From positions 129,332 to 193,331 of the forward strand of contig JAHJTE010000001.1 of NCBI GenBank assembly GCA_018830005.1: 64,000 bases of DNA, read 5' to 3'. The DNA comes from Candidatus Omnitrophota bacterium (GTDB taxonomy: Bacteria; Omnitrophota; Gorgyraeia; JAHJTE01). Under the pieces are notes generated by a model. The model saw nothing but the letters and a program-made list of their open reading frames with translations, made no database searches and was not told the DNA's origin. The stretch's first letter is position 1, and each line of letters begins with the position of its first letter. The position numbers and the translations under genes were made by a program. Shown here piece by piece: positions 22,173 to 42,646 of the stretch.

Positions 22173-22225
22173 GTAGTCTTTCTAAAATGTTTTAAAAAGG
22201 ATAAGAGTCATATTAGGAGGTAGTG

Positions 22226-25200
22226 ATGAGTATGCAAATAAGGTCAAAACAAAAGAAAATATTTGGTTTCATAACAGCTTCTATTCTTGCCATTTTATTT
22301 CTTCCTTTAACTAATGCTTTCGCCTACACAGAGGCGGAGCTTTGTGTAAATCCAGATAAAGACCACTGCTTTTTTGTTGCTGAAGATGGTAGTGATACTA
22401 CAGGAGATGGCAGTCTCACCAAGCCCTACAGGACTTTAGCTCCTTTGTTCTCTGTTGGTGGAAACTATAGTGCAAAGCTTGATAAGGCAGATTCTCAGCT
22501 AAGGACTGTAGTAATGCGAGCAGGAGATTATCATCATGCTGGTACTGTTTATCTACGTCGTTCCAATGTAGTTTTAAAAAATTGGCCTGGAGAAAGGCCA
22601 AGAGTTTGGCTTGAAGGAGACAACAGTGCAAATACACATAGACTTACCCTAGGAGTGGGTTATTCTGGCTACAGTTGCGAAAATGTAACTGTTGAAGGCC
22701 TAGATATAGAAGGTGGCTATTCTTATGCCTTAAAGATTTATGAAAACACCAAGGATGTAACCATAAGAGGAAATAAAATACATGGCTCAGGATATGATGT
22801 AATAAAGATTGTTGGTTGCGGAGTGAGTGGGAACTTAGATTATGACAACTATTTATGTAATCAGAACGCACTTATTGAAGATAATGAGATTTATGATTCT
22901 GGACTTAAAAGCACTATCGGTGATGAGGGCATTGATGCCATGGGGACCTATAATACAATAGTGCGGCATAATTATTTCCATGATATTCAAGGATCAGGAC
23001 TTTATTTCAAGGGCCATTCTAAAGGTATTATAGTGGAAGAAAACTTTTTCTACAACACTGGAACTGGAGGGCTTGATCCGAATAACGTCAATGATACTTG
23101 GGGCGGATTATGGCTAGGGGATGACTCAATGCTTGCATATATCCCTGAGCCTCCCCACAATTATGAGATTGAAGATAGTATCGCCAGAAATAATATTATT
23201 GCAAATACTCAAGGCGATGCCTTACGAGTGATGTCTTGTAAAAATTGTTCTGTGTATAACAACACAGTTTATAACAAAAACAGAAAAGAATTTCCGCGGG
23301 GCTACTTGACTGATTATTCAGGTTCTTTTTCAATATTCAAGAATGCGAAGAAGTCCATTGATGGCATCTGGGCTGATGAGTTAAGGCTGCGCAATGCCGA
23401 GGTTTATTTTAGGAATAATATCGTAGTGGATTCTATAGAGCAAGGTTATGGAATCCAGTTACCCATAGTTGCGATTAACGGTCCTTTTTATAATGGTAGG
23501 AATTCTGACCATTTAAACATGAGAAATAATATCTACTATCGAAGAGATGGCGACTATCGATTTAGAAATTATAGCAGTGAGGAAGCAGTAACTGGTAGCA
23601 CTAGTATTGATGAGTGGCAACAGGTAAGCGCGTTGGATCAAAATTCAAAGATTGCCTCCAACCCAGGAACGCTTTTGCGAATAATGGCTGACGCAAGCCT
23701 ACCTGAAAATGACCCAAAGAGTTATTTACAGACAATTAATTCTGAAGCACTCACTTTAGACGCTGGTGCATACATTGATTTAAGTGTATCTCCATGGACA
23801 GAGTGGTTTCCGGAAACCTGCAGCGATGGCCAGACGCGAAGCTGTGTTACCACTCATAGCTGCGAAGGCCTACAGACTTGTAGCGGCAGCACTTGGAGTT
23901 CATGTCAGGATATAGTTGGGGATAGCTGTCCAGGTACATGCGTTGACAATGATAATGATGGTTATGGTAAACCTGCCTCATTTGCCTGTCAATTTCCTGA
24001 TTTAGATTGTAATGACAGTAATCCTAATGTCAATCCTGGTCATTTAGAAATCTGTGGCAATGGCGAAGATGATGATTGTCGAAGCGGCGATGAGGCTTGC
24101 AAGCAGTGTGTAACAGGAGATACTGTTTTTGGCCAGATTCATGCAAAAGGATGTATATGTGAAGGAGAACAAAGATATACAGGATATTGTTGTGAAGGTA
24201 ATATATATAATCCGTATACAGCTTGTGGCTATGAAGAATGCAGGCCGAATCAATTCTGTGTGACTAACTCTAACTGTTCGGGAACTTGTGATGCATTGGG
24301 TACGGCTTGTATAGATAATACAGCAGATAGTTGTCCTTCATTCATATTGCAGGATGGCCTGGATGGATATTCAGGAACTAAAGATACTTCTTTGTTGAGC
24401 ACCAAACCTACCAGCGTGTCTGGTTCCTCAGGTGCTCTAGGGCTTTGGACAGAGGGTTCGGCAGAGTATAAATTCGTGATAGAATTTGATATTTCATCGA
24501 TTCCTCAAGGGTCAAAAATAAAAGATTGCATTTTACAGATATATACGACTTCTTCTGAGCTTTCGCGTACTTCGAAAAAAAATATCTCGGCGCGCCGGAT
24601 CTTGAGGCCTTGGGTGGAATCTCAAGTAACTTGGAATAAAGCTAATTCTTCTACATATTGGGCCTTAGCCGGAGCAGATGCAGATGGACTCGATAGGAAT
24701 CTTACGCCTTTAGTTACTCACAATCCTACCAAGCCAGATCTTATTTTATATAGGATGACAGACACATGGGCTAGCTTTAATCTTTTAGAATCAGGTGATA
24801 ACATTGCTGAAAAATGGCTGGATGGGACATACCCTAATTATGGCCTCGTTTTTGAGATAGACACTCTTGATGCACGCGGTATGGGCTTTGCCTCGAAAGA
24901 AAATAGCCTAGGTCAGGAGTTTAAACCCAGACTTATCATAAATCTTGAAGGTCAAGGATCACTGCCTCCACCTCCTCCACCATTAAATCAGCCGCCGGTA
25001 TTAGACTCAATTGGCAATAGATCTATCAATGAAGGAGAAAGCCTTACCTTTAATATTTCAGCCACTGATCCAGATGGTGACACCCTAACTTACTCAGCCT
25101 CTAGTCTGCCCCAAGGAGCTATATTTATTAACCAGGCATTCAGTTGGAGGCCTGATTATGGACAGGCAGGAGAATATCTGGTTACTTTTAGCGTAAGCGA

Positions 25201-27730
25201 TGGTGCGGAAATTGATTCAGAAGATATAACAATAACTGTTAATAAGATAGATAACTCCCCACCAGCCATAACTATTACTTCACCCGGGGATAACGCAATA
25301 GTTTTTGAGAGCCCGATACAAGTGAGCGGTACAGTTAGCGATGCTCTAAGTTCTATAGCTAGTGTTAAGGTCAATGCAGAGGAAGTAGCGCTTTCAAATA
25401 GCAGCTTCTCAGCCTTGGTAGCCTTAGAACTAGGAGAGAATATAATTACTGTTACTGCTTCAGATGCTGCAAGCAATACAGCCGAAGTCTCTATTACTGT
25501 TACACTTGATACAGCGCCCACAGGCGGTATTACATTGACTGCTTCTGCAAGTCCTACTTCTGGCACCGCACCTTTGACTGTTGATTTCCAGGCTCAGGCC
25601 TCAAGTACTGAAGGCGCTATTGTAAGATACGAATGGGACTTGGAGGGCCATAATACATTTCGCATGAAGCAAGTGGTTTCCTCTCCAGATGTAAGTTATA
25701 TATATACTGCTGCTGGTTTATATGTGGCTACAGTCAAGGCGATTGATTCTGCTGGTAACTATGAGACATATTCATTTGCGATTAATGTGAACGCAAATCC
25801 TGATGCTCCAACTGTAGCACTTTCAGCAGATACAACAAGCGCAAGTACGCCTTTAAGGGTAAAATTCACTGCAAATGCTAAGGCCGCAAATACAATATCT
25901 AAATATGAATGGGATTTTGATGGCGACGGTGTATTTGAACTTAATAGTAGTAGATCATCTAAGGTTATCCATACCTATATAGTTGCTGGCGTCTATCAGG
26001 CGCGAATTAAGGTAACGGATAGTAAAGGTCTTTCTGCAGAAGACCAGGTTATAATTGATGCCCGAAGCATAAAAGGAACGCCTGAGTTTTCAATTGTAAC
26101 TGATAGGGTTTCTGGAAAGGTGCCTTTATTGGTTAATTTTACTGTTAACAAGGACAACGATTTTACTGCCTTAAAATATGAATGGGATTTTGATGGAGAT
26201 AAAGTAGTAGATTTGGTATCCAATAGTCCAGAAGGAGCATTCACTTATCGCAATGCTGGCACCTTTGATGTTGTTCTTAAGATTATCACTGATAAATCCA
26301 TCGCAGGCTTAGGATATAAACAGATAAAGATTAAAGGGCCTGAAAAAGACTCAGATGAAAGCGGTTCAACTGTCTTAAGCTCATTGTCTCTATCTCAGGC
26401 TACAGGCATTGCCCCTTTGCTGGTAACATTTGCAAATGCCAGTCAGAATTCAATAGAGAGCCTCTATGATTTTGACGGCGATGGCAGTTTTGATTTAAGT
26501 AGTAAGGCAGCCGAATTTAAGACGTACCTCTATAAGAATCCTGGGCTTTATACCCCATTATTAAGGGTATTGGGAACAGGTGGTGATGTAAGCTTTGCCA
26601 GTAGGATTATCTGGATAAATGATGCTGTTGCCAAGCCAATAATGACAGAACCTTCTAATGGCAAGACTCTAGCTGGAGATTCTATAGGGCTTGTTGCTGA
26701 TGCTCCTGTTGGCATAGATATCTTGAAATTAAGTTTCGAGTTTAAGGCATATAACGAGACTACTTGGCAGGAGGTGTCTAACTCCTTAACCGAATTTCCT
26801 TACAATCTAAAATGGGATGTTTCTGGTCTAGCGGATTCTAAGGAATACAATATTCGTGCCAAGGTAATTGACGCAGGAGGCGGAGAATACATATCTGATG
26901 CAATAACTATAACCTTGGATAATAATGACTCTAATCCTGATATAAGAGAGACAACAGCAAATGCACAGGGTGAATATACTAAGGAGGTCAAAATAAACAA
27001 AGAGGAAAATTACACAATTAGCCTCTGGGATGGTACTGTAATTATTGTTCCCCAGGGAGCTTTAGGTGCTGAAGATAAGCTAATCATGAATATCGCTGAT
27101 CCGGCATTAGTGCCTAATAAACTTGAAGGTCAAGACTTAGCAGATGCCAGACAGTATAAGAAATTTAGCCTTGAAAGCGGCAGATACCTTTTTGATAAAG
27201 ACCTTACACTAGTAATCCCTTACCCTGATCTTAATAATGATGGCATTGTGGACGGCACCTCTATTAATGTAGAGACGCTTAGTATCTATCAATTTAATGA
27301 AGCCAGCAATGTTTGGCAGAAGGTTAACAGTACGATTGACCTAATAGAGAAGACTGTGCGCGTAAAGATAAATCATTTTAGCTTGTTTGGTTTAGGAGGC
27401 CTTGGTGAGGACGGAGATGATGTTTCTTCTGATTCAGATTCACCTATTCTGCCTGTTTCTACTTCTGAAGGTGGCGGAGGAGGTAGTTGTTTTATTGCCA
27501 CAGCCGCCTTTGGCAGTCCGCTAGAAGAAGAAGTTAAGACACTTTCTGAATTCAGAGATAGATACTTGTTGAGCAATAGAGCTGGTGAGATGTTTGTAAG
27601 ATTCTATTATCAACATTCTCCGAAATTAGCAGAGTTTATTAAAGATAAGGAATCTTTAAAGGTAGCAATTAGATTATTCTTGAAACCACTTGTTAATCTA
27701 AGTAAATTTTTGCTAGAGGCAGGAGGATAG
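22226..27730 (+). CDS. giant (1835 aa) secreted multidomain protein: signal peptide, right-handed parallel beta-helix (pectate-lyase-like), Cys-rich MopE-like putative metal-binding repeats, cadherin/Ig-like domain, >=5 PKD repeats, Gly-rich linker and C-terminal [10 protein letters not shown] box domain
   Basis: Signal peptide [33 protein letters not shown]. Beta-helix N..I.N repeats ([18 protein letters not shown]). [25 protein letters not shown]-type repeats. [46 protein letters not shown]. Repeated [12 protein letters not shown] units. Tail [36 protein letters not shown]... Confidence 0.8.
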
Positions 27731-27732
27731 TC

Positions 27733-28440
27733 ATGATTATCAAAAGAACAAAGATGATTATTGCTATGACCCTGGGGTTTATATTTGCAATCAACATTTC
27801 CTGCTATGCCACTGATTTTGAAAAGAATCAGATATTGAATTCTCGCCATATCTTGATTGGTACGATTGTCAAGGATAATCCTAGAGACTCCTTGGCAATC
27901 ATTAGAGATAGCACGAATGATAAAGATGCAAGTTACAAGGTTGGCCAAATTCTTGATGGATATTACATTGTTAGAATAAAACGGGCAGAGGTAGAACTTT
28001 TAAGGCAAGGAAAGATTTCCTCCTTAAGGCTGCCCTTAGGAGGCGGCGCTGAATTCATCACAATCGTTTCTGGAAACGAACGCATTGTTAACCGCACTGC
28101 TTTAAATGAGCGCTATAAGAATCTGAACGAAGTTTTTGGCGCTGGTATTGTGTTTCCTCACATTGAAAAGGGCAAGTTAGCAGGATTAAAGATTGTGCGT
28201 ATCAATGATGAAGAGCTTGCTAAGGCAACTGGCGTGAGCGAAGGTGATATAGTTATTTCGGTCAATAACCAGAAATTGACAGGTGTAAAACAAGCCTTAG
28301 ATGTTTATAATAAATTAAGAAATGAAGAAGAGATAGAGTTAGAGCTAAAGCGCAACGGAAAGTTGCATAAGTATAGTTATTATATGAATTGGGAAGAAGG
28401 AGGCAAGATACCAAGGCTGCTCAAAGAGCAGAAGTTATAA
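27733..28440 (+). CDS. GspC/PilP-like secretin-interacting protein with C-terminal PDZ domain (putative T2SS protein C)
   Basis: N-terminal signal/TM, HR-like beta domain (ILIGTIVKDNPRDSLAIIRD...YKVGQILDGYYIVRIKRAEVELL), PDZ-like GLKIVRINDEELAKATGVSEGDIVISVNNQKL. Confidence 0.45.
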   Translation: MIIKRTKMIIAMTLGFIFAINISCYATDFEKNQILNSRHILIGTIVKDNPRDSLAIIRDSTNDKDASYKVGQILDGYYIVRIKRAEVELLRQGKISSLRLPLGGGAEFITIVSGNERIVNRTALNERYKNLNEVFGAGIVFPHIEKGKLAGLKIVRINDEELAKATGVSEGDIVISVNNQKLTGVKQALDVYNKLRNEEEIELELKRNGKLHKYSYYMNWEEGGKIPRLLKEQKL

Positions 28441-28971: not shown

Positions 28972-30579
28972 ATGAAAAAGACAAGGTTATTTATATTAGT
29001 ATGTTTGATATGCATTTCTTGGACAGCTCGACTATCTGCTATTGATTTGACTCTAGACGTAAAAACAGATAGCCAAGTGGCAGGGCAGACGCAACCTTAC
29101 GGCTATGTCAAGATAGAAGGTAGAAAGCTTTTAGTAGATTTTGATAAAGACGGAATATATGAACTATATTTTATTAAGGGTGTTGGCTATAGTCCTTATC
29201 CAATAGGCAGACAGCCTACTGAGTGGAATAAACCCAATATATTTAATGATAGCCAAATTCTTCATCGTGATTTTTCCCTGTTACAAGCAATGAATTGTAA
29301 CACTATTCGTATCTGGAAAGGAGATGATACTGAAGAAGATAATGGCAAATTTCCTTGTAAGATCACCAGGACTTTTAATCCAGAAAACCCAGGAACGCTT
29401 GATATTGCAGATGAATACGGTATCAAGGTCATAGCGGGATTTTGGATCCAGACGCAACAGCCGCGCTGTGAGGATGGGAAGGTAATATATGATGAATTAG
29501 CTTTTCTTACTGAGGGCAGCCTTGAACAAGATGATTTGTTATCTAGATTCCGAGCCTATGTTAATAAATTTAAATGGGATCCTGCTATTCTCTTTTGGGC
29601 TATCGGTAACGAAAACAACTTTCATATACCGCCGGATAGATTGCATGAGTGGTATGCGTTCGTAGATAAGATGGCTGAGATTGCTCATGAGGTTGAAGAT
29701 CCTGATAACTTTGGTTATTATCATCCAGTTGCAGTTGTTAACGGAGATATCATGTTTGATAAAGATACTGTTGTTATTGGAAATTATGATTTTGGAACGA
29801 CAGATGCACAGATGAGCCATTTGGATATTTGGGGAGCGAACGTCTATAGAGGGGATTCTTTTGGTGAGCTGTTCTCTGATTTTGCAGCTAACTCAGATAA
29901 ACCAATTTGGATAGCTGAATACGGCGTAGATGCCTGGCATGTTGATGACTGGCAGGATGAGCAGCCTGGGATTGGTTTTGAAAATCAGGATATCCAAGCT
30001 CAATGGGTTGGTAAGCTTTGGGATGAGATTGCTGCTAATTCATCAGTTGCCAAGTGTGGGATAAGCATAGGAGCAACAGTTATGGAATATTCAGATGAGT
30101 GGTGGAAGCCGATTGAATGGGAAGAATCAGGTATCCATGATTACGATGGCGTTGGCCCTACTGATACTGACTGTCCTCCTGATCCTCTTGATGATGAAGA
30201 AAGAATTGATTGGTGGCCTGCTAGTCCGGATAATTTTTTTAATTCTGAATGGTGGGGGATTATGGCTATTAGCCGTCCATACCCTGATGATGGGGGGCCA
30301 GATATTATGACACCTCGTTTAGTGTATTACACTTTACAAGATAAATTTGCAGATGAACAACCACATCTTTTCCTCTGCGGTGATGCTAATGCAGATTGTA
30401 GCCTCAATATAGGAGATCCTGTTTATTTGATTAATTATAGTTTTAAGGGCGGCCCAGCACCTGAACCTCTGGAGGCAGGCGATGCCAATGGAGACGGTAG
30501 TGTTAATATAGGTGATGCTGTTTATCTGCTTCACTACATCTTCAAGGGCGGCCCAGCACCGGTGTGCGTAGGAAACTAA
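28972..30579 (+). CDS. secreted clan GH-A glycoside hydrolase (TIM-barrel, GH5/GH2-like) with C-terminal tandem type-I dockerin repeats
   Basis: Signal peptide; AIGNENN (acid/base NEN) and WIAEYGVD (nucleophile Glu) motifs. C-terminus CGDANADCSLNIGDPVYLINYSFKGG...DANGDGSVNIGDAVYLLHYIFKGG gives two Ca-binding dockerin segments. Confidence 0.65.
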   Translation: MKKTRLFILVCLICISWTARLSAIDLTLDVKTDSQVAGQTQPYGYVKIEGRKLLVDFDKDGIYELYFIKGVGYSPYPIGRQPTEWNKPNIFNDSQILHRDFSLLQAMNCNTIRIWKGDDTEEDNGKFPCKITRTFNPENPGTLDIADEYGIKVIAGFWIQTQQPRCEDGKVIYDELAFLTEGSLEQDDLLSRFRAYVNKFKWDPAILFWAIGNENNFHIPPDRLHEWYAFVDKMAEIAHEVEDPDNFGYYHPVAVVNGDIMFDKDTVVIGNYDFGTTDAQMSHLDIWGANVYRGDSFGELFSDFAANSDKPIWIAEYGVDAWHVDDWQDEQPGIGFENQDIQAQWVGKLWDEIAANSSVAKCGISIGATVMEYSDEWWKPIEWEESGIHDYDGVGPTDTDCPPDPLDDEERIDWWPASPDNFFNSEWWGIMAISRPYPDDGGPDIMTPRLVYYTLQDKFADEQPHLFLCGDANADCSLNIGDPVYLINYSFKGGPAPEPLEAGDANGDGSVNIGDAVYLLHYIFKGGPAPVCVGN

Positions 30580-30758: not shown

Positions 30759-32474
30759 GTGCCTCTACGCGATTCCACAAAAACAATCGGTCAGATTCTT
30801 GTAGCTGAGAAGATAGTTACTGCAGAGGAGTTAGAGGTTGCCCTGCGGGAACAGAGAAAAACCAGCGGTTATCTTTGCCAGATAATTGTAAATTTAGGAT
30901 TTGCAAAAGAGGAAGAGATTTTTCCTATTCTAGCCAATCAGTTAGGCATACCCTATATCCGCATCAAAAACATAAATATTGCTCCTGAGGTAATAAAGAA
31001 GGTTCCGGCAAAATTTGTTTCCCATTATAAGTTGATGCCCATTTCTATGGTAGGTAATAAATTGACCATTGCTATGAGTGACCCCTTGGATTTGCATACC
31101 CTTGATGATATCCGTCTTTTTTTAGGCGTAGAAGTGGTTCCTGTATTAGCAGGCGATAACGATATTGCAGAATCAATCAGAAAATATTACGGCATAGGCG
31201 CAGAAACTGTTGATAGGATTGTTAAAGAGACTTCTCCCCAGACAAAGAAGCCAATTTCAACCAAGGCCGATATCGAGGACCTGGAGGCAATGGCAGAAGA
31301 TGCCTCAATTGTCAAATTTGTAAATCAGCTGCTTGTTCAGGCCCTTAAGGACAGGGCTACTGATGTTCATATTGAGCCTTTCGAAGATGAATTGCGTGTG
31401 CGTTTTAGAATCGATGGTGTTCTCTATGCAATCAACATTCCTTCTAATCTGCGCTATCTACATGCCTCCATTGTCTCGCGCGTTAAGATTATGTCTAATT
31501 TAGATATTGCTGAGAGACGGCTTCCTCAAGACGGCCGGATTAAAGTGAAGATCGGTAAATATCAACTGGACCTGCGTGTTTCCATAATACCTTCTAATTT
31601 TGGAGAATCAGTACATATTAGAATCTTAAGTCCAGAATCATTTTTGGAGTTAGGGAAGTTAGGCCTACTTGAAAAGGACCTTAAGATAATTGAGCAAGCG
31701 ATTAAGACATCCCACGGTATAATCTTTGTTACCGGCCCGACTGGAAGCGGTAAGACTACTACGCTTTATGCGGGCCTAGCTAAGATAAACAAGAGCCCCT
31801 TAAAGATAATTACCATTGAGGATCCAATTGAATATCAACTTAAAGGTGTTATTCAACTTCAAGTGCAGCCCAAAATCGGTTTTGATTTTGCCCAAGGATT
31901 GCGCTCTATGTTGCGTCATGACCCGGATGTTATGATGGTAGGAGAGGTGCGTGATTTTGATACTGCAGAGATTGCAATCCGAGCTGCCTTAACTGGCCAC
32001 CTTGTATTTTCAACTCTGCATACAAATGATGCCTCTGGTGCAGTAACGCGGCTTCTGGATATGGGCGTTGAACCGTTTTTAATCTCTTCCAGTATAGAGT
32101 GTTTGATTGCCCAGCGCTTGGTGAGAGTGATATGCCCTAAGTGTAAAAACAAGCAGAAGATGAGCAAGGCTGCCCTTAAGGAATTGGGATTTCGCATTGA
32201 AGAGAATGAAGTCTTGACATATAAAGGCAAAGGCTGTTCTGATTGTCGTATGACAGGTTTTCGCGGAAGAACCGGGATATATGAGATTTTATTAGTAAGG
32301 GAACCTATACGCGAGCTCATCTTAAGTCGCGCCTCAAGTCAGCAGATAAAAAAGAAGGCCATAGATTTAGGCATGCTTACTTTAAGGCAGGATGGCTGGC
32401 AGAAGGTCTTAGAAGGGATTACTACAATAGATGAGGTCATCCGCCTAACGCAGCAGGAAGAATTACCAGTATAG
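30759..32474 (+). CDS. gspE: type II secretion system ATPase GspE (PilB-like)
   Basis: N-terminal MshEN/GSPII-N domain, Walker A GPTGSGKTTT, Asp/His boxes, tetracysteine Zn motif CPKC...CSDC. Confidence 0.85.
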   Translation: MPLRDSTKTIGQILVAEKIVTAEELEVALREQRKTSGYLCQIIVNLGFAKEEEIFPILANQLGIPYIRIKNINIAPEVIKKVPAKFVSHYKLMPISMVGNKLTIAMSDPLDLHTLDDIRLFLGVEVVPVLAGDNDIAESIRKYYGIGAETVDRIVKETSPQTKKPISTKADIEDLEAMAEDASIVKFVNQLLVQALKDRATDVHIEPFEDELRVRFRIDGVLYAINIPSNLRYLHASIVSRVKIMSNLDIAERRLPQDGRIKVKIGKYQLDLRVSIIPSNFGESVHIRILSPESFLELGKLGLLEKDLKIIEQAIKTSHGIIFVTGPTGSGKTTTLYAGLAKINKSPLKIITIEDPIEYQLKGVIQLQVQPKIGFDFAQGLRSMLRHDPDVMMVGEVRDFDTAEIAIRAALTGHLVFSTLHTNDASGAVTRLLDMGVEPFLISSSIECLIAQRLVRVICPKCKNKQKMSKAALKELGFRIEENEVLTYKGKGCSDCRMTGFRGRTGIYEILLVREPIRELILSRASSQQIKKKAIDLGMLTLRQDGWQKVLEGITTIDEVIRLTQQEELPV

Positions 32475-32514
32475 GATGAGTTAATAGTCTTAGATCTTTA
32501 GACTACTTAAGATT

Positions 32515-33732
32515 ATGCCTACATTTACCTACAAGGCAAAATTAGGTCCCAGCAAATTAGAACAAGGCTCAATCGAGGCTGAAAATCAAGAACAGGCAAT
32601 TAAGAAGATAAGTGATTTAGGGCTGTTTCCTGTAGAGGTACGGCCTTATAAGCAGTCAAAGAATATATCTTTATTCGCTAGGTTTGGACAGAGAAACAAG
32701 ATTAAAAATCAGGAAGTTATTAGCTTGACCCGCCAGTTAGCAAGCCTCTTGGAAGCTGGATTAAATATCCTCCCAGCCCTTAATGCCATAAAAAGCCAAT
32801 TAGTAATGCCTGCTTTAGTTTCTCTCGTTGATGATATTGCCCAAAATGTAAAAGATGGTGCATCATTCTCCGAAAGTCTAAGCCACCATAAAGATATTTT
32901 CTCTAGCCTTTATATCAATGTTGTAAGAAGCGGCGAATTGAGTGGAAGGTTAAATCACGTATTAGATACCTTAGCTGATTTTTTAGAAAAAGGCGAAGAT
33001 CTACGTCAGAGAATAATCTCTGCTTTAGTTTATCCTGTATTGGTTTTGGCAGTAGGCATTTTAACAGTAGCAGTCCTTTTGATTTTTGTCATTCCGCGTA
33101 TCGGGGTAATGTTTGAGGATATGGGTCAGGTGTTGCCTCTTCCCACACAGATAGTCGTGGGTATAAGCTCAATGATAGTAAATTATTTTTTTGTTTTTTT
33201 TGCAATTATAGTAGTTTTATTTTTCTTCATTAATAAGAGGATTAAAACAAAAGAAGGTAGAATTTTTGTTGACCGCAGCAAACTCAAAACTCCTCTTTTA
33301 GGGATGTTCATTCGTAAACAACACATCGTTCAATTTTCTCGCACCTTATCTCTACTCTTAGCAAGCGGTATTCCAATTGTGACTGCCTTAGAGCTGGTGG
33401 CTAATACCTTATCTAACGGAATGATCAGGCAAGAGGTAAAGACAATGTCTACTGCAATACGCGAGGGAGCTAGTCTTTCAACCTCAATAAAGGAGAGCAA
33501 ATATTTTCCTGCATTCGTCTCCAGTATTATTGCCGTTGCAGAAGAATCAGGAAGTTTAGATAGGTCGCTTGCGCGTTTAGCAAGCAGTTTTGAGCGTGAT
33601 GTAGAAAGGATTATTAAGACATTTACCGTAGCCTTAGAGCCAACACTCATTTTCCTCATTGGTTTAGTTGTTGGTTTTATAGTAATAGCAATGCTGCTTC
33701 CAATTTTCCAGATTAACTTGATTGTGGGTTGA
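32515..33732 (+). CDS. gspF: type II secretion system inner-membrane platform protein GspF (PilC-like)
   Basis: Duplicated GspF domain and 3 TM segments. Follows gspE. Confidence 0.8.
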   Translation: MPTFTYKAKLGPSKLEQGSIEAENQEQAIKKISDLGLFPVEVRPYKQSKNISLFARFGQRNKIKNQEVISLTRQLASLLEAGLNILPALNAIKSQLVMPALVSLVDDIAQNVKDGASFSESLSHHKDIFSSLYINVVRSGELSGRLNHVLDTLADFLEKGEDLRQRIISALVYPVLVLAVGILTVAVLLIFVIPRIGVMFEDMGQVLPLPTQIVVGISSMIVNYFFVFFAIIVVLFFFINKRIKTKEGRIFVDRSKLKTPLLGMFIRKQHIVQFSRTLSLLLASGIPIVTALELVANTLSNGMIRQEVKTMSTAIREGASLSTSIKESKYFPAFVSSIIAVAEESGSLDRSLARLASSFERDVERIIKTFTVALEPTLIFLIGLVVGFIVIAMLLPIFQINLIVG

Positions 33733-33765
33733 TGCAGGGATGATCGCAGATAACCGGAGGTAAAT

Positions 33766-34194
33766 ATGCGCAAGAGTAATAGTGGCTTTACGTTGATCGA
33801 ATTAATGCTCGTTGTAATCATCATCGGCGTCCTTGTTTCTATGGTTCTGCCGCGTCTTGCCGGAAGGTCAGAACAAGCAAGGATTGCGGCAGCAGGCGCG
33901 GATATAAATGCCAATATAGCTACAGCCTTAGATATGTATGAGCTTGACAACGGAAGATATCCTACGACAGAACAGGGTTTAAGGACATTGGTTGTTGAAT
34001 CGGATGTTTCGCCCCTACCTAACAATTGGCACGGGCCTTATCTGAAAAAGATACCCCAAGATCCATGGAAAAGAGCTTATGTATACAAATCTCCCGGAGA
34101 CCACAGCCAGGATTACGATCTATCCAGTTTAGGGCCTGACGGGATCGAAAGCGCTGATGATATTACCAGCTGGCAAAGTGAGATCTCTCCATAA
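33766..34194 (+). CDS. gspG: type II secretion system major pseudopilin GspG
   Basis: Prepilin N-terminus GFTLIELMLVVIIIGVL and T2SS-specific signature DPWKRAYVYKSPGDH...YDLSSLGPDG. Confidence 0.85.
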   Translation: MRKSNSGFTLIELMLVVIIIGVLVSMVLPRLAGRSEQARIAAAGADINANIATALDMYELDNGRYPTTEQGLRTLVVESDVSPLPNNWHGPYLKKIPQDPWKRAYVYKSPGDHSQDYDLSSLGPDGIESADDITSWQSEISP

Positions 34195-34657
34195 AAATAA
34201 ATTCGCCTTCACGTTAATTGAACTTCTATTGGTTGTAGCGGTTCTTTCCGTAATGGTTGGAATTAGTCTGCCTGCATTCAAAAAAACATATAACCGTCTG
34301 AATTTAGAAAATATTGCCCTTAATATTTTAAGTACTGCGCGCTATGCTCGGGCTAAGGCAATTGTCGAGTCAAGGATTTATCGTCTAAATTTTGATATCG
34401 AAGATAAGAGTTACTCACTCAGCACAGAAAGCGATGACAAAATCGAAGGCTTCCAGCCTATTAGTGGTCGCTTCGGAAAGATAGCTCAGATAACAGACGA
34501 TATCAACATTAAGACCTCAGCAGATCATGTCAATTTTTATCCAAGCGGAGATTCTGATGAAATAATAGTTGTTCTTAAAAATACTGATGGCAGAGTCTAT
34601 ACAATAGGAAAGTCAGGGGTCTTTGGCGAATTTAAGATTATTGAGGAAAAAGAATAG
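34157..34657 (+). CDS. minor pseudopilin (GspH-like); start uncertain (ATG 34157 or GTG 34178)
   Basis: Prepilin leader KNKFA/FTLIELLLVVAVLSVMV; follows gspG. Confidence 0.55.
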   Translation: MILPAGKVRSLHKNKFAFTLIELLLVVAVLSVMVGISLPAFKKTYNRLNLENIALNILSTARYARAKAIVESRIYRLNFDIEDKSYSLSTESDDKIEGFQPISGRFGKIAQITDDINIKTSADHVNFYPSGDSDEIIVVLKNTDGRVYTIGKSGVFGEFKIIEEKE

Positions 34658-34663
34658 GATATA

Positions 34664-35110
34664 ATGACTAAGCAGATTTTTAAGCGATTCCGTGGGTTTT
34701 TAAATCAGAACTCTTATAGTAGGTTAAGGGATAAGGCAAGAGCTGGTTTTCTTTTGATTGAAGTGTTGATAACTGTAGTAGTTCTAGGTACGGCGATTGT
34801 ATTTATTGTTCAGGCATTAAGCTCTTCTCTTTTTGCTGCAAGACGAGCCTCTCTTTATACAGAGGCATTGATGTTAATGGATGAACTCAACTGGGATGTC
34901 AAGTTAGAAACCTACTCCCAACCTTTTCTAAGTAGAGGGGATTTCCCTAAAAGCTCTAAAGTTTCTAAAGGTAAAACAGACTTTAATTTGAGGCAAGAAT
35001 TATTTTTAACGGATTTTCCTAATCTTTCAGAGATGGTTTTGACTGTCTCCTGGACAAAGGGAGAATTCTCAACATCGACGTATGTGCTGACGGCACAAGT
35101 AGAAGAGTGA
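34664..35110 (+). CDS. minor pseudopilin (GspI-like)
   Basis: Prepilin-type N-terminus AGFLLIEVLITVVVLGTAIV. Size and position after gspH. Confidence 0.5.
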   Translation: MTKQIFKRFRGFLNQNSYSRLRDKARAGFLLIEVLITVVVLGTAIVFIVQALSSSLFAARRASLYTEALMLMDELNWDVKLETYSQPFLSRGDFPKSSKVSKGKTDFNLRQELFLTDFPNLSEMVLTVSWTKGEFSTSTYVLTAQVEE

Positions 35111-35775
35111 GGCAGTCTAGCATGATTTTTAATATCTTAAACTATCGGCTAAAGAGTAGTGTGCTTAGGTATAAGAGAGGCATAACTTTTGTTGAGCTCT
35201 TAATTGCAATTTTGATATTTTCCATTATTGTTACCTCGCTGTATTCGGCATTTAGAGTAGGATTGACTGCATACAAAAGAGGTGAGAGGTTTGCCTCTTG
35301 CTATCAAGGGATACGTCTGGCCTTAGATTCAATTGCCTTGGATTTACGAAATAGCTATAAATTTTCTGAATCCGATGTCAGATTTAAAGCAGAAGAATCG
35401 AAGGTCTCATTTTATACTCTTAAGAATTTTACTTCAGAACAACATAAAGATAACTTTCAGATTTGCAAGATAGAATATTGGAAAGAGGATAAAGAATTAT
35501 TTAGAAAGGTTTTTGCTGGCAATTTGGCATTTTCCGAAGAAGAAGTAAGTGCTGGTCTCCTGCTGGATAATTTAAGTGAATTCAGCATTGAATTTCCCTA
35601 TAAAGATGAAGAGGCTCAATCAGTAGTTTGGAATGATTACTGGCTGGCAAGCGATGAGTTGCCTTTAGCAGTAAAGATTTATTTGAAGATAGATGAACCT
35701 GAAACGGGCCAACCCATAGAGTTGACAAAAATCATATATATTCCGACGGGAGAATTAGGAAGGCCTGAGGAATAA
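35107..35775 (+). CDS. minor pseudopilin (GspJ-like)
   Basis: Prepilin-type N-terminus RGITFVELLIAILIFSIIV. Overlapping start with the previous gene. Confidence 0.5.
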   Translation: MRQSSMIFNILNYRLKSSVLRYKRGITFVELLIAILIFSIIVTSLYSAFRVGLTAYKRGERFASCYQGIRLALDSIALDLRNSYKFSESDVRFKAEESKVSFYTLKNFTSEQHKDNFQICKIEYWKEDKELFRKVFAGNLAFSEEEVSAGLLLDNLSEFSIEFPYKDEEAQSVVWNDYWLASDELPLAVKIYLKIDEPETGQPIELTKIIYIPTGELGRPEE

Positions 35776-35785
35776 TGGGGTATTA

Positions 35786-36847
35786 TTGTTAGGAGTTATG
35801 GATTACATAAAGCCGTATAAAAAAGTTAACAATAAGGCCTTGATTCTAATTGTTGCCTTATGGATCGTAGCTATTCTGACTTTATTGGCTATTGGCCTGG
35901 CACATCGCATATCTATTGAGCTTCATCTGATTAGATTCTCTCGTGACAGATTAAAGGCCTGCTCTGCCTTAGAGGCTGCAGTACAATCAGCAGCTTATAT
36001 CATCGCCCAAGATATAAATGGTTACGACAGCATGAACGAGATCTGGGCTAATGGTATATGGGATGAATTTAACGAGTCAATCTTTAAGGATGTCAAGCTT
36101 AAACAGGCTGTATTTAGCATAATACATAAAGTAGATGATGAAACTGGCGTCCTATCTTTACTCTATGGGCTTAGCGATGAGCAGGCGAGGCTGAATATCA
36201 ATACCGCTACGGCCAATCACTTGCAGACATTTTTTCTAGAAGCTGAAATAGAGAATTCCAGAGAAATATCCGCTTCCATTTTAGATTGGATTGATGAGGA
36301 TGAGATTACATCTTTTGACGGAGCTGAGGATGATTACTATACTGGCCTGGATATGCCTTATCATTGTAAAAACGCACCCTTATCTAGCATTGAAGAATTA
36401 TTATTTATTAAAGGCATGGATCCTGATAAATTTGAAAAAATTAAACCCTTTATAACTGTTTATGGTGATGGTAAAATAAATATTAATACTGTAAGTGAGC
36501 TCCTCTTGAGTTCCCTGCTTATTAGTCGCGGAACTTTGGATTCGACTGCCAGGAAATTAGCTGGTGAGGTTGTTGATTATAGGCTTGGCGATGATGGTGA
36601 GATCGGAACTGTAGATGATAGAATTTTTGAAAAGTTCCAAGATATTGTTTTGGCCTTGAGTAGCCAAACTTCTTTGGGTGAGTTTGCTAAGTGCGCGGAT
36701 ATAATTAAGTTCAACTCCAGTTTTTTTCGGGCAGATATTTGGGCCCAGTCTTTAAATAAAGTTGCTCAGAAGAGGGCATTGTGTATATTAGAGAAAGACC
36801 GAGCAGCAGTAAAGATGCCCAAGGTAGTTAAATGGCAAGAGTATTAA
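35786..36847 (+). CDS. gspK: type II secretion system minor pseudopilin GspK
   Basis: N-terminal TM, GLSDEQARLNINTA and tandem helix-hairpin-helix-like motifs (SIEELLFIKGMDPDKFEKIKPFITVYG...ININTVSEL). Confidence 0.7.
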   Translation: MLGVMDYIKPYKKVNNKALILIVALWIVAILTLLAIGLAHRISIELHLIRFSRDRLKACSALEAAVQSAAYIIAQDINGYDSMNEIWANGIWDEFNESIFKDVKLKQAVFSIIHKVDDETGVLSLLYGLSDEQARLNINTATANHLQTFFLEAEIENSREISASILDWIDEDEITSFDGAEDDYYTGLDMPYHCKNAPLSSIEELLFIKGMDPDKFEKIKPFITVYGDGKININTVSELLLSSLLISRGTLDSTARKLAGEVVDYRLGDDGEIGTVDDRIFEKFQDIVLALSSQTSLGEFAKCADIIKFNSSFFRADIWAQSLNKVAQKRALCILEKDRAAVKMPKVVKWQEY

Positions 36848-36851
36848 TACA

Positions 36852-38300
36852 ATGAAGAGATTAAAAGCCAAGAAGAATGTCTTTAGCAGCGTCGAGCTGA
36901 ATCATGACTCGATTAAAATTGCTCAGGCAGAGTCAATTTTAGGAAAACCAAAATTTACCCATCTTTTTTACTCCCGCGTCGGCGACCTATCTAAGAAAGA
37001 AACTCAAGGCAAGATTAGGAGCCTCTTAAGCAAGGAGCAAATCGAAATTACAAATTGCCTTCTTTGTCTGCCTCGCCACAACGTAACAACCCGCTATCTT
37101 AAGCTGCCCAGTTTAGAAGAGCAAGAGATTGAAAAGATGCTTATGCTTCAAATCCCTAAATTGCTTCCTTATGCACCGGGAGAAATACTATCCAGTTACA
37201 AAAAGATTACTTCTGATAGTGAAGGTTATACTTATTGTATTGTGATTTTAGCCCAAGAAAATCTAGTAAGGCGTTATCTTTCGTTTCTTAAGGCCATAGG
37301 CATAGAGGCCTCAAGTGTTATTTTAAGTTCAGAAGTATGTGCTCACTGGCTAAGATTTATTAATAAAGTGAACATTAAAAATGAGACGATTGTTCTTATT
37401 GATGTCGATACGAGTAGTGTTGATATTATGATTATAAATGGGGGAGAACTAATTTTTACTCGTAGTTTTTCACGCGAATTACAAGATACGCAAGGTCTAT
37501 CCTGGCAGAATAAACTTCAGGATGAGATAAGGCGTACATTGGAGACTGCTGAAAAGGAAATAGGTAAGCAGAATATAACTCGCCTTATCTTAAGCGGCAG
37601 CCGTTTAGCCACAAAGGATACGGATAAGGCATTATCCGAAAATTTTTCTCGTCCTGTAGAAATTATCTCTAGACTTGAGGAGGAATGTATTAAGTCGCAG
37701 GCCTCAATAGCAAAGACCTTACGAGAATCAGATACCTCCTTTACCTCAGTTATGGGAGCTGCAGTTAGCAGGCAGAATTTTTCTATAAATCTTTTACCTG
37801 CGGATATTAAGGCCAGGCTAAATTGGCAAAGGCTAAAAAAGGAACGAGTCAAATGTATATCTTTAGTTCTATTAATTATTGCATTTTCTTTTGGTCTCTT
37901 TGTTAAACATATTTATGATAAACAGAGGCTCTTAAAAACATTAGAGCAGAAGATAGCAACATTATTGCCAGAAGCCACTATGAGAGAGAAGATAAGTTCA
38001 CGCCTGGAGATAATACGCGAGCAGTTAAAATCAAAGGTTTTTACCGCCCAGCTTATAAAAGAAATATACACTATCATTCCTGACAAGATATATTTAAATA
38101 GCCTTAGTATTCAAAAAGATGAGATTTTGATAATAAAGGGGCAGGCCGATAAATTATCTAATGTCTTTACTCTTGTAGGGGCCTTGGAAAAAAGTACATA
38201 TTTCCAAGACGTACGCGTGCGTTATGCTACGAAGAGAAAAGTCAAAACAGTTGAAATTACGGATTTTCAGATAGATTGTCCCCTAAAGGATAGCGAATAG
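36852..38300 (+). CDS. GspL-like assembly protein (PilM-type actin-like ATPase fold fused to PilN-type TM/periplasmic domain)
   Basis: ~320-aa cytoplasmic PilM-like region, TM helix (ISLVLLIIAFSFGLFV), ~130-aa periplasmic tail. Position between gspK and the gspM-like gene. Confidence 0.6.
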   Translation: MKRLKAKKNVFSSVELNHDSIKIAQAESILGKPKFTHLFYSRVGDLSKKETQGKIRSLLSKEQIEITNCLLCLPRHNVTTRYLKLPSLEEQEIEKMLMLQIPKLLPYAPGEILSSYKKITSDSEGYTYCIVILAQENLVRRYLSFLKAIGIEASSVILSSEVCAHWLRFINKVNIKNETIVLIDVDTSSVDIMIINGGELIFTRSFSRELQDTQGLSWQNKLQDEIRRTLETAEKEIGKQNITRLILSGSRLATKDTDKALSENFSRPVEIISRLEEECIKSQASIAKTLRESDTSFTSVMGAAVSRQNFSINLLPADIKARLNWQRLKKERVKCISLVLLIIAFSFGLFVKHIYDKQRLLKTLEQKIATLLPEATMREKISSRLEIIREQLKSKVFTAQLIKEIYTIIPDKIYLNSLSIQKDEILIIKGQADKLSNVFTLVGALEKSTYFQDVRVRYATKRKVKTVEITDFQIDCPLKDSE

Positions 38301-38312
38301 CTAGAGAATAAA

Positions 38313-38846
38313 ATGAAATTGATAAGTCAGCTGTCGAAAAGAGAAAAGAACATTTTTTATTTTACTATATTAATTATTGCCTTTAGCCTGATATTCAAAT
38401 TTATCTTGTTGCCTTTGTTTAATTTAAATCAGAGATTAACACAAGAGGTTAAAGCAAAAGAGATAGAACTGGTAAGGGCGAGGCGACTTTCTAAAGGCGG
38501 ATCAGTGCAAAGTCAATATGATGCATTCATTGCTGCGATTAAGATGGGTGAAAGCCAGGATTTGGAAATGGCCCGCTTACTTTCTGAAATAGAGTCAATA
38601 GCCAAAGAGGCAGGTGTGAATATCTTGAATTTAAGACCTCATGAGATAGAAGATAAGAGGTTTTATAAGAGATTTCTCATTGAATTAAAGTCTGAAGGAA
38701 CAAGCCAGCAAATTTTAAGATTTATATTTTCGTTAGAATCCTCACAACTCCTGTTGAGGATTGAGAAGTTTAACCTCAGCTCAAGAATCTCTAAGGGGAA
38801 TCTCCTTAATGCCACATTAACCGTCTCTAGAGTGGCAATTCCTTAA
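38313..38846 (+). CDS. GspM/PilO-like bitopic membrane protein
   Basis: N-terminal TM, coiled-coil region, C-terminal ferredoxin-like region. Gene order. Confidence 0.5.
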   Translation: MKLISQLSKREKNIFYFTILIIAFSLIFKFILLPLFNLNQRLTQEVKAKEIELVRARRLSKGGSVQSQYDAFIAAIKMGESQDLEMARLLSEIESIAKEAGVNILNLRPHEIEDKRFYKRFLIELKSEGTSQQILRFIFSLESSQLLLRIEKFNLSSRISKGNLLNATLTVSRVAIP

Positions 38847-39179: not shown

Positions 39180-40004
39180 ATGAGCTATTTTAGCCAACTT
39201 GGCCTAACCCAGGAACCATTTTCGACAAGCCCAGATCCTGAATTTCTTTATCATTCCCTAGGTCACGAGACTGCCTTGAGGCGGCTTGAGATCTCCATAC
39301 GCTTACGCAGAGGATTAAGTCTTATTGTCGGTGATATTGGCACAGGAAAGACCACTCTTAGCCGCACCCTCTTTCAGGTATTTAAGAATGAGCCAGACTT
39401 TATTTTTCACCTCATACTAGATCCTAATTACAAAACTGAATTTCAATTTCTTTCTTCATTGATTAAGATGTTGGGGATACACCCGAATTTTAAGTCCACG
39501 CTGGATTATAAGGAGTCACTAAAGGATTATCTATTCGCAAAAGGTGTAGAGGAAAACAAGACAATAATTTTATTAATTGATGAGGGGCAGAAGTTGACTC
39601 CGGATCACCTTGAGATTCTAAGGAGCCTGCTTAATTATGAAACCAATGAGTATAAACTATTACAACTTGTGATTATGTCTCAAATGGAACTCTTACCACG
39701 TTTAAGAAGGGCGAAGAATTTCACTGACCGTATAGCCTTAAAATACATAATTAATCCCCTGGGCGAGAACGAGACAAAACAGATGATTGAATTTAGATTA
39801 CATCAGGCGGGATTTGATAAAGGAGCCAGCCTCTTTAGTGAAGAGGCGATGCGATTAATCTATGAATATACTCAAGGTTATCCGCGCAAGATTACTCTTC
39901 TTTGCCATGACGCATTGGAACTTTTGATCATGAAAGAAAAGAGAATAGTAGATAGAGGAATTGTTGAAGAGATTATAAACAGAGAGTCTTTTTTAAATGG
40001 ATAG
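39180..40004 (+). CDS. ExeA/GspA-like AAA+ ATPase
   Basis: Walker A GDIGTGKTTL, Walker B LLIDEGQ. Typical ExeA size and its association with T2SS. Confidence 0.75.
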   Translation: MSYFSQLGLTQEPFSTSPDPEFLYHSLGHETALRRLEISIRLRRGLSLIVGDIGTGKTTLSRTLFQVFKNEPDFIFHLILDPNYKTEFQFLSSLIKMLGIHPNFKSTLDYKESLKDYLFAKGVEENKTIILLIDEGQKLTPDHLEILRSLLNYETNEYKLLQLVIMSQMELLPRLRRAKNFTDRIALKYIINPLGENETKQMIEFRLHQAGFDKGASLFSEEAMRLIYEYTQGYPRKITLLCHDALELLIMKEKRIVDRGIVEEIINRESFLNG

Positions 40005-40656
40005 ACCATCACCAGAAGAAAAATTATTGCGCCTGATTAAAGACGCTACTGGAAAGGGGGCCCGGCAGAAGAAAAAGCAGGCCGATGCACAGGAGAGCGT
40101 GCAGCCTTCGTCGCCAGAGCTTCCAGTCCGAACCCAAAAGTTGCGGACACATCAAAAGCGGATCAAGAAGCTCAAAACCCCTATTTTCAGCTTTAAATTT
40201 ATAAATAAGGTCTTGCATACTTTGCTTGTAATTATATTTTTATTTTTTGTTTTTAACATTATCTATAGCAGCAGAGAAATAAGCCAGGTAGAAAGAGAGG
40301 GATTTGAAAAGGATAAGGATTTAGAATTTGCTTCTTTTCCTGAAACCCTTGAGGGGGAATTTACTGACTATCTGTCAGCCGGCAGGAGGCGTGATATATT
40401 TACTTCCTCTGGCATGCAGATGATATCCGAAGGTTTAGCATCTTCTATATTTGATGCGGAGCAGTATGTTGGTAAGCTAAAATTATTAGGCATAATTTCA
40501 GGCATTAAGTCTCAAGCAATTGTTGAGGATCAGAACGAAAATAAAAATTACACCTTAAGTGTTGGTGATTATTTAAAGGAGTTCTTAGTTGAAGAAGTAG
40601 GAAAAGGTAAAGTGCTATTTGATTATAAGGGTGAGAAGTTTGATTTGTATCTATAA
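39997..40656 (+). CDS. bitopic protein in the ExeB/GspB position; C-terminal PilP/GspC-HR-like beta domain
   Basis: Basic N-terminus, single TM (VLHTLLVIIFLFFVF), C-terminal LKLLGIISG...QAIVED...YTLSVGDYL...KVLFDYKGEKFDL resembles the PilP/GspC secretin-binding beta-sandwich. Confidence 0.35.
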   Translation: MDRPSPEEKLLRLIKDATGKGARQKKKQADAQESVQPSSPELPVRTQKLRTHQKRIKKLKTPIFSFKFINKVLHTLLVIIFLFFVFNIIYSSREISQVEREGFEKDKDLEFASFPETLEGEFTDYLSAGRRRDIFTSSGMQMISEGLASSIFDAEQYVGKLKLLGIISGIKSQAIVEDQNENKNYTLSVGDYLKEFLVEEVGKGKVLFDYKGEKFDLYL

Positions 40657-40720
40657 ACGATTGTCTACCTGCGGACACGTTTGGCTAAGGTGGACATAAT
40701 AGATTAAATGGAGGTCCATT

Positions 40721-42646
40721 ATGATTAATACGAAAATATTCCCAATTTTGACATTAGTGATTTTTCTGATCTTTCCTTTTGGTGTCCTTGCCCAGCAAGA
40801 AGCAGAAGTTCAAGAAGACCCAATGAACAAGGAGCTGCAAATTAAAGAAGAGCCCTTGGATGAGACGATTTCTCTTGATATCAAGGGTATGGATATTGTA
40901 GATGTCCTAAAGACATTGGCTATGCGTTCAGGATTAAATATCGTCGTGGGTAAAAATGTAGTGGGAAAGGTCACCATCTTCTTAAAAGGTGTTATGCCGC
41001 GTCAGGCCCTTGACATAATCTTATTGGCTAATGGTCTTGCATACGAAGAGCAGGATGGAATTATTAGTGTAATGACTGACCGCGATTATGAAGCGCGCTT
41101 CGGTGAAAAATTTGCCGACAAAAAAGAGATTTCTGTCGTAAAGTTAAAATATGCTAAGGCAGCGAATTTGGTCCCTACCCTCAACCAGATGAAGTCTACG
41201 ATTGGTAAGGTTTTTGTCGATGAGGGATCTAATGTAGCTGTACTTATGGATACCCCAGAGAGATTATCGCAGATGCGCCAGATGTTACTTCATATTGACC
41301 GTCCAACCCAGACGCGCATATTTGATCTTAACTACTCAGATTCGGATAAGCTCCAGAATAAAATTCAAGAAATGCTAAGTAAAAACATAGGAACCATTAC
41401 GATTGATGAGCGCACTAATAAGATTATTGTCACTGATTATTCTGAAAAAATAGATAATATTGCAAAGATTATTAATGCCTTTGATTCGCGTACGCGTCAG
41501 GTGCTCATTGATTCTAAGATTGTTGAAATCACCTTAAGTGATAGGTTTCAACTTGGCATTGACTGGGAATATTGGATTGAAAAGAATTTCAAGGTTGGCA
41601 ATACCTTTCCTTTAAGCCTTACTACAGGCGGCACATTGACACTGGGTACTACTAGCGCGATAGACGAGGTAGGTGAATATAAAAGTGTTGTTGACATGCT
41701 AAGAACTATTGGAGACACGCGCGTTCTCTCAAGTCCCAGAGTAACGGCATTGAATAATGAGGAGGCAAAGATTCTTATCGGCACAAAAGAAGCCTATATT
41801 ACCCAGACTACTTCTCAATCGGGCACAGGAGCAACTATAACTGCCGAAAGCGTTAATTTTGTTGATGTGGGAGTTCAGCTTTACGTTACGCCCACTATCA
41901 ATCAAGAAGGTTTTGTGACAATGAAAATAAAGCCAGTAGTAAGCTCTGCTGTACGCACAGAGATAACAAGCGGCGATACAATAAGTGAAATACCTATTGT
42001 CTCTACTTCTGAGGCCGAGACATCGGTGATGGTTAAAGACGGCTCAACTATAATAATTGCTGGTTTAATTAAAGACGAGATAATTCAGACAATAAATAAA
42101 ATCCCGGTTTTAGGAGATATACCCATACTCGGCCACCTATTTAAAAACACGAGTGATGAGGTTAGAAAGAAGGAACTTGTAATATTTTTAACTCCTCATA
42201 TACTCTCTCCTTCCTTAGTTGAAACCAAGGCTAATGCCTTAGAATTTGAAGAAAGCATTAATACTTTAGAGCATTATAATAAACCTGAGCCAGACAAGAT
42301 ACGTTCGCTAAAGTCCGAGGAGAGCCAAGCAGAATTAAAGAACGATGAGGATTCCCTAGATTTAAGTTACGTTGGATATCTTACCCGCTTGCGCAAAATT
42401 ATAGCTGAGCAGGCAAGCAATATTGCCAGAGATGATTTTTCATCTGGGAAAGTAGAGATTTCTTTTGTTCTGGGTGCTGATGGTAAGTTGTTGGCAGATC
42501 CAGAGGTTGCCTTTGCCACAAGTGATGATTTAGGAGAGCTTGCCTTAAAGGCAGTACTTGCCTCAAGTCCTTTTCCGCCTTTTCCTGAAGATTTAAAAAG
42601 AAAACAAGAACGTTTTGATATTGTTATTTCTTATTCAGAAAAATAG
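40721..42646 (+). CDS. gspD: secretin (GspD/PilQ family) with C-terminal TonB-C-like domain
   Basis: Signal peptide, N0/N1-like domains, secretin core (VLIDSKIVEITL...IPVLGDIPILGHLFKNT...LVIFLTPHIL). Followed by ~100-aa tail GKVEISFVLGADGKLLADPEVAFATSDDLGELALKAVLASSPFPPFP matching the TonB C-terminal domain pattern. Confidence 0.8.
   Translation: MINTKIFPILTLVIFLIFPFGVLAQQEAEVQEDPMNKELQIKEEPLDETISLDIKGMDIVDVLKTLAMRSGLNIVVGKNVVGKVTIFLKGVMPRQALDIILLANGLAYEEQDGIISVMTDRDYEARFGEKFADKKEISVVKLKYAKAANLVPTLNQMKSTIGKVFVDEGSNVAVLMDTPERLSQMRQMLLHIDRPTQTRIFDLNYSDSDKLQNKIQEMLSKNIGTITIDERTNKIIVTDYSEKIDNIAKIINAFDSRTRQVLIDSKIVEITLSDRFQLGIDWEYWIEKNFKVGNTFPLSLTTGGTLTLGTTSAIDEVGEYKSVVDMLRTIGDTRVLSSPRVTALNNEEAKILIGTKEAYITQTTSQSGTGATITAESVNFVDVGVQLYVTPTINQEGFVTMKIKPVVSSAVRTEITSGDTISEIPIVSTSEAETSVMVKDGSTIIIAGLIKDEIIQTINKIPVLGDIPILGHLFKNTSDEVRKKELVIFLTPHILSPSLVETKANALEFEESINTLEHYNKPEPDKIRSLKSEESQAELKNDEDSLDLSYVGYLTRLRKIIAEQASNIARDDFSSGKVEISFVLGADGKLLADPEVAFATSDDLGELALKAVLASSPFPPFPEDLKRKQERFDIVISYSEK

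Follow-up and report, generated by a model that had tools for sequence, protein, structure and literature searches.

A CFI-box-CTERM domain behind a ZU5-like domain with a predicted autoproteolytic site on an Omnitrophota exoprotein that heads a type II secretion operon

The window, which is the whole 64-kb stretch of Omnitrophota DNA that was analysed, carries a large ORF for a polysaccharide-lyase-like, adhesin-like and Sec-exported protein (Table 1). An independent public gene call contains the same protein and sets its start one codon downstream of the GTG, which results in 1834 aa. The N-terminal part is composed of a beta-helix, a Cys-rich MopE-like region, DNRLRE/CBM96, He_PIG/Big_9 and Glucodextran_B, in this order. 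It is followed by four PKD domains, a ZU5-like domain, a linker and finally a CFI-box-CTERM domain. No segment of the protein is more hydrophobic than the signal peptide (Kyte-Doolittle 19-residue mean 1.97), and the linker between the ZU5-like and CFI domains was modelled with low pLDDT values of 58–69. The ORF is also translationally coupled to the complete type II secretion system (T2SS) operon that it heads; gspC has its Shine-Dalgarno sequence, AGGAGGA (27721-27727), inside the last codons of the ORF, where these bases also encode Gly-Gly, 5 nt before the ATG.

Table 1. Positions of the exoprotein gene, its C-terminal features and the genes of the T2SS operon in the window.
Feature	Position	Strand	Remarks
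Large exoprotein ORF	22223-27730	+	1835 aa from GTG; TAG stop 27728-27730
Predicted Sec signal peptide	22223-22324	+	K-rich n-region, AFA cleavage site before YTEAE; read from sequence
ZU5/GAIN-like beta-sandwich domain	26990-27406	+	aa ~1590-1728; final folded domain ahead of the linker
HFS motif (H1718, F1719, S1720)	27374-27382	+	predicted autoproteolytic site between F1719 and S1720
Acidic, Ser-/Gly-rich linker	27407-27487	+	closes with GGGGGS run 27470-27487
CFI-box-CTERM domain	27488-27694	+	aa 1756-1824; box 27488-27517; Cys codon 27488-27490
Last 11 residues and TAG stop	27695-27730	+	protein end ...KFLLEAGG
GspC-like T2SS protein	27733-28440	+	235 aa; N-terminal hydrophobic segment, HR/T2SSC region, PDZ domain
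Glycoside-hydrolase TIM barrel (GH2_C-like), C-terminal dockerin	28972-30579	+	second likely exoprotein within the operon
gspE (MshEN-type c-di-GMP-binding N-terminus), gspF, gspG	within 30759-38846	+	
Three pseudopilins resembling H, I, J; gspK; PilM/PilN-like GspL; gspM	within 30759-38846	+	
ExeA-like AAA_22 ATPase and 219-aa ORF without family match	within 39180-42646	+	
Secretin GspD, TonB_C-like C-terminus	40721-42646	+	

The tail of 80 aa from the Cys to the protein end was matched by the NCBIfam model NF041770 (CFI_box_CTERM) over all of its positions (1-69 of 69). The full protein scored 92.7 bits (E 8.9e-27) and the isolated tail 98.5 bits (E 1.4e-28), well above the 40 bits of the curated cutoff. 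The tail thus represents a true CFI-box-CTERM domain of a known, uncharacterised family, as the preliminary description had supposed when it called the tail CFI-box-CTERM-like. It had also placed the box at the C-terminus behind a glycine linker, and the match indeed ends 11 aa before the stop, with GGGGGS preceding the Cys; only its start at 27478 falls inside this linker, because the GGGGGS run extends to 27487 and the Cys codon begins at 27488. That the match arose by chance or from faulty ORF calling has a negligible probability in view of the E-value of 1.4e-28 against a curated model, the unbroken 1835-aa ORF with recognised domains throughout and the independent gene call that gives the same protein.

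The signature CFIATAAFG (aa 1756-1764) follows the family pattern CFIATAA[YF]G. The Cys as well as A8, T9 and A10 were invariant across 68 CFI tails, with ten invariant columns overall. AlphaFold2 modelled the tail from this 68-sequence alignment as four helices (residues 6-12, 18-31, 35-55 and 59-83 of an 84-aa segment) with a pLDDT of 89.1 and a pTM of 0.75. Among 149 family members, a GGG run ahead of the Cys was present in 126, and the residue directly before it was Gly in 118, Ser in 11 and Ala in three cases. Most often, 77 aa separated the Cys from the protein end. The domain has a mean net charge of +4.9. CFI-box-CTERM can be described as a compact, usually basic four-helix module of approx. 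77 aa, which starts from an invariant Cys and sits on a Gly-rich hinge. The copy in the window does not differ in sequence from NF041770 or the short motif model NF041763 and belongs to the short form, which has neither a transmembrane (TM) helix nor a basic tail. Intein- or Hedgehog-like autoprocessing by the CFI box at a "G/CF" site was set aside, as the domain is predicted to be helical and not a Hint fold. A six-frame scan of the window revealed no second CFI box. Pfam scans gave no model of the domain, and a profile search of the PDB sequences gave nothing significant.

A word-indexed homologue search with the tail alone returned two proteins, and an exhaustive phmmer search was needed to detect the family, which comprises at least 18,930 clusters at 50% identity. 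CFI boxes were located in at least 589 genome loci of Omnitrophota, Desulfobacterota, Nitrospirota, Gammaproteobacteria, Dehalococcoidia, Firmicutes and Saccharibacteria, on 146 plasmid records, including those of Ralstonia, Burkholderia, Paracoccus and Haloquadratum, and on one Clostridioides phage-plasmid; archaea also carry the family. The initial assumption of a rare box confined to a few anaerobic lineages was therefore wrong. RefSeq already applies the name CFI-box-CTERM to Haloquadratum WP_052288770.1 and to one protein of a Bathyarchaeia MAG. The literature search yielded no functional study of the box, in agreement with the earlier remark that its function is uncharacterised. With nearly 19,000 clusters, CFI-box-CTERM ranks among the largest protein domains without a known function.

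The passengers of the domain are diverse. On 77 members, 95 different Pfam families were counted, most of them extracytoplasmic, and PKD, beta-helix, Kelch, subtilase and InlB B-repeat were among them. A hydrophobic N-terminus was present in 67 of 100 complete members. A few others lack a signal peptide and seem to be cytoplasmic, namely a Haloquadratum Mrr_cat-WYL-CFI protein, Zn-ribbon-CFI proteins of the Clostridioides phage-plasmid and of Bathyarchaeia, and a Ralstonia protein in which the CFI domain is internal. Across 77 genome loci, CFI genes had no conserved neighbour, and the neighbour tally that had been proposed thus came out negative for the family, while it did reveal T2SS genes within 10 kb at eight of the 77 loci. 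A sigma-54 response regulator was encoded nearby most often (12 loci), which was judged uninformative. An outer-membrane barrel is fused to some CFI proteins; it was never encoded as a separate neighbour and is missing from the window.

A long form with an extra TM helix and a basic tail was counted 52 times among 85 genome copies and 66 times among 149 representatives. The statement in the preliminary description that the box is not followed by a TM helix consequently applies to the window protein, in which the Kyte-Doolittle 19-residue mean of the tail peaks at 1.13 compared to approx. 1.95 for the signal peptide, and not to the family. In the 52 long genome copies, the CFI domain is followed by a TM helix and an Arg/Lys cluster, and it would accordingly lie close to the membrane at the outer side.

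This arrangement invites comparison with tripartite sorting signals. A sorting enzyme could recognise the CFI box, cut between Gly/Ser and Cys and couple either the Cys or the newly formed C-terminus to a lipid or to a polymer of the wall. The invariant Cys with a preceding residue that is mostly Gly (118/149), the C-terminal position on many unrelated exported passengers and the TM helix and basic cluster that end about half of the members would fit such a signal, and NCBIfam itself calls NF041763 a "CFI-box putative sorting motif". It would parallel the GlyGly-CTERM/rhombosortase, MYXO-CTERM and PEP-CTERM systems, some of which work alongside a T2SS, and surface-retained T2SS cargo with a C-terminal tag is a precedent (PMC6219818, PMC13393428). 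A lipobox-like reading, i.e. a small residue and then Cys, was kept only within this explanation. Still, cleaved sorting is unlikely. In a tripartite signal, the motif is directly followed by the TM helix, whereas approx. 70 folded residues come after the motif in the window protein. Where a TM helix is present, it lies behind the same conserved and confidently predicted domain, which puts the site out of reach of an intramembrane enzyme. Short forms such as the window protein do not have a TM helix at all, nor a basic cluster at the extreme C-terminus. Furthermore, a conserved neighbouring enzyme did not emerge from the 77 loci, sortase, exosortase, rhombosortase and myxosortase had no match among the window ORFs scanned (11.6-50.6 kb; the window covers 64 kb of a 552-kb contig), and the domain also occurs on proteins without signal peptide and in internal position.

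The ZU5-like domain directly upstream of the linker, including its HFS motif, had gone unnoticed in the preliminary description. In its structural model, the domain adopts a ZU5-type beta-sandwich fold, and HFS is situated in the turn between the last two beta-strands (E122-129 and E132-139). The Pfam model ZU5 (PF00791) did not match the window segment at E ≤ 1; it matched five of seven aligned homologues, which are 27-35% identical to this segment, with a best E of 7e-8. H and S of the motif were conserved to at least 90% in an alignment of 17 sequences. HFS conforms to the cleavage motif defined as H/S-[FL]-[ST] (PMC3210808) and is located where Nup98, PIDD, FIIND and GAIN domains have their autoproteolytic site; for the window protein, self-cleavage is a prediction. 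The best structural match of the domain was the ZU5 domain of ankyrin. As ankyrin ZU5 is not autoproteolytic, the fold alone is no proof of cleavage. Within 70 aa upstream of the CFI Cys, the pattern H[FL][ST]x[FYWLI] was found in 24 of 209 proteins, compared to 0.5 expected from shuffles. It was much more frequent in proteins without a TM helix (20/104) than in those with one (4/105; Fisher p 4e-4). The HFS stalk is hence a feature of only approx. 10% of the CFI proteins.

The 235-aa PDZ protein encoded immediately downstream is a divergent GspC and the first gsp product of the operon. It scored 113.4 bits with GspC_delta NF041515 (cutoff 150), 57.4 bits with TIGR01713 (cutoff 101.6) and 22.3 bits with Pfam T2SSC (cutoff 27), whereas PDZ_2 was above its cutoff of 27 with 31 bits. 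Its best model matches were all GspC, and it has the TM segment, HR and C-terminal PDZ domain of a GspC as well as the location in a gsp operon. The preliminary description had regarded this protein as a possible dedicated partner of the box. For the family as a whole this does not hold, since GspC is no conserved neighbour; the picture is different for the Omnitrophota GspC subfamily of the window, where the ORF of a CFI protein runs up to the gspC start in seven of eight loci, and the C-terminal regions of the gspC-paired CFI proteins are homologous. The subfamily was scanned with a two-sequence GspC alignment.

The pairing raises the question of whether the CFI domain or the adjoining ZU5-like sandwich is recognised by the PDZ/HR part of GspC and serves as a cis-encoded signal for T2SS targeting or retention. 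This is doubtful. [quoted passage not shown] On the other hand, most CFI proteins are encoded without a T2SS gene nearby. Dehalococcoidia, Syntrophomonas, Saccharibacteria and archaea are expected to be devoid of T2SS, and the CFI domain is nevertheless present in them. Moreover, the -EAGG end is atypical for a PDZ ligand, and its residues are constrained by the gspC ribosome-binding site.

The reading favoured here, with a probability of roughly 40%, is that a self-cleaving stalk is followed by a CFI "foot" which is retained by the cell, i.e. a retained tether and not a cleaved sorting peptide. The position of the CFI tail shortly after a domain of the self-cleaving ZU5 type and just before a T2SS operon suggests that the cell retains this part. 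According to this model, the giant protein would be exported by Sec and fold in the periplasm, where Ser1720 would attack the F1719-S1720 bond via an N-O acyl shift. The products would be a passenger of 1719 aa and a C-terminal fragment of 116 aa, which comprises the last beta-strand together with the linker and CFI domain. By analogy with GAIN-7TM receptors and FIIND proteins, both pieces may be held together non-covalently through this last strand. The CFI domain would then act as the foot on the membrane surface or envelope, which the TM helix and basic tail of the long-form relatives would strengthen, and the neighbouring T2SS could move or display the passenger. For CFI-box proteins in general, we infer cleavage, retention and membrane binding alike. 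The short-form tail without a TM helix is only moderately hydrophobic, which was counted against the foot. Since some members without signal peptide look cytoplasmic, a tether outside in the envelope cannot be a complete explanation for the family. The retained foot also does not account for the role of the invariant Cys.

Self-association would be workable in any topology and thus fits exported and cytoplasmic members equally. Here, the four-helix CFI domains would bundle with those of the same protein or of TM-anchored long paralogues, so that passengers are multimerised or cross-linked at the membrane, on either side; a Cys-Cys bond may be involved. Several CFI proteins often co-occur, with two copies in eight of 80 loci and one Smithella MAG supplying two loci. 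Tandem fusions of the domain exist (P0003-P0006), and the Omnitrophota locus L017 encodes a short and a long form together. The small-residue helix A-T-A-A-x-G and the invariant Cys would also suit tight helix packing. Yet the model of the monomer is already compact and confident (pTM 0.75), and self-association was rated as rather improbable.

Among the characterised systems, GlyGly-CTERM/rhombosortase T2SS cargo such as VesB and MYXO-CTERM proteins are the closest in that they are exoproteins with a C-terminal tag behind a Gly-rich stretch. They use the T2SS and stay on the cell surface (PMC6219818, PMC12369372). VesB shares with the window protein the beta-sandwich just upstream of the tag, and the PDZ domain of a GspC is involved in the case of VesB (PMC12369372). 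The GlyGly-CTERM and MYXO-CTERM tags are, however, short and tripartite, with a TM helix and basic residues right behind the motif, and are removed by an intramembrane protease. The window tag is instead a folded helical domain of 77 aa without TM helix, and no rhombosortase-like gene is visible in the window. In comparison to GAIN/GPS-7TM proteins (adhesion GPCRs), FIIND (ZU5-UPA; NLRP1, CARD8), PIDD and Nup98, the window protein is bacterial and extracytoplasmic and its cleavage is predicted, and the C-terminal fragment would carry a CFI-box helical domain in place of a 7TM, UPA-CARD or Nup96 module. It is quite improbable that the HFS stalk and CFI foot constitute a prokaryotic counterpart of GAIN-7TM proteins in which the retained fragment or the adjoining sandwich is recognised by GspC in Omnitrophota. 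If this were true, it would provide a cis-encoded and physically separable signal for T2SS targeting and retention, which has so far been missing in the T2SS field.

The locus offers a concrete setting for the CFI box, namely after a ZU5/GAIN-type domain and at the head of a T2SS operon. A retained foot would explain how many large surface enzymes of bacteria and archaea are kept, and possibly shed, and could bear on cargo recognition by the T2SS; otherwise, the window protein would be an ordinary instance of an annotated domain. Neither a CFI box behind a ZU5-like HFS domain nor one before gspC was found in the searchable literature. In the available parts of their article, Zhang et al. 2012 (PMC3482391) report ZU5 domains in large bacterial surface proteins with adhesion and glycohydrolase modules and predict that these ZU5 domains are responsible for protein processing on the cell surface. 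The ZU5-like domain of the window is penultimate and coupled to a CFI box, a pairing these parts do not mention.

Omnitrophota are ultra-small bacteria, and published genomes tie their giant proteins to possible predation. The giant-protein loci of two preprints (bioRxiv 10.1101/2023.11.21.568195 and 10.64898/2026.06.07.730766) are from the same phylum and, as far as their available text extends, share with the window very long exoproteins together with T2SS/pilus genes, GH2-type hydrolases, dockerin and TonB-domain content. The same portions describe neither the CFI-box tail nor a ZU5-like HFS stalk, and a term search of one Omnitrophota preprint gave no mention of 'CTERM'. With its 1835 aa, the window protein is well below the very long proteins of at least 10,000 aa that the available portions of these preprints present.

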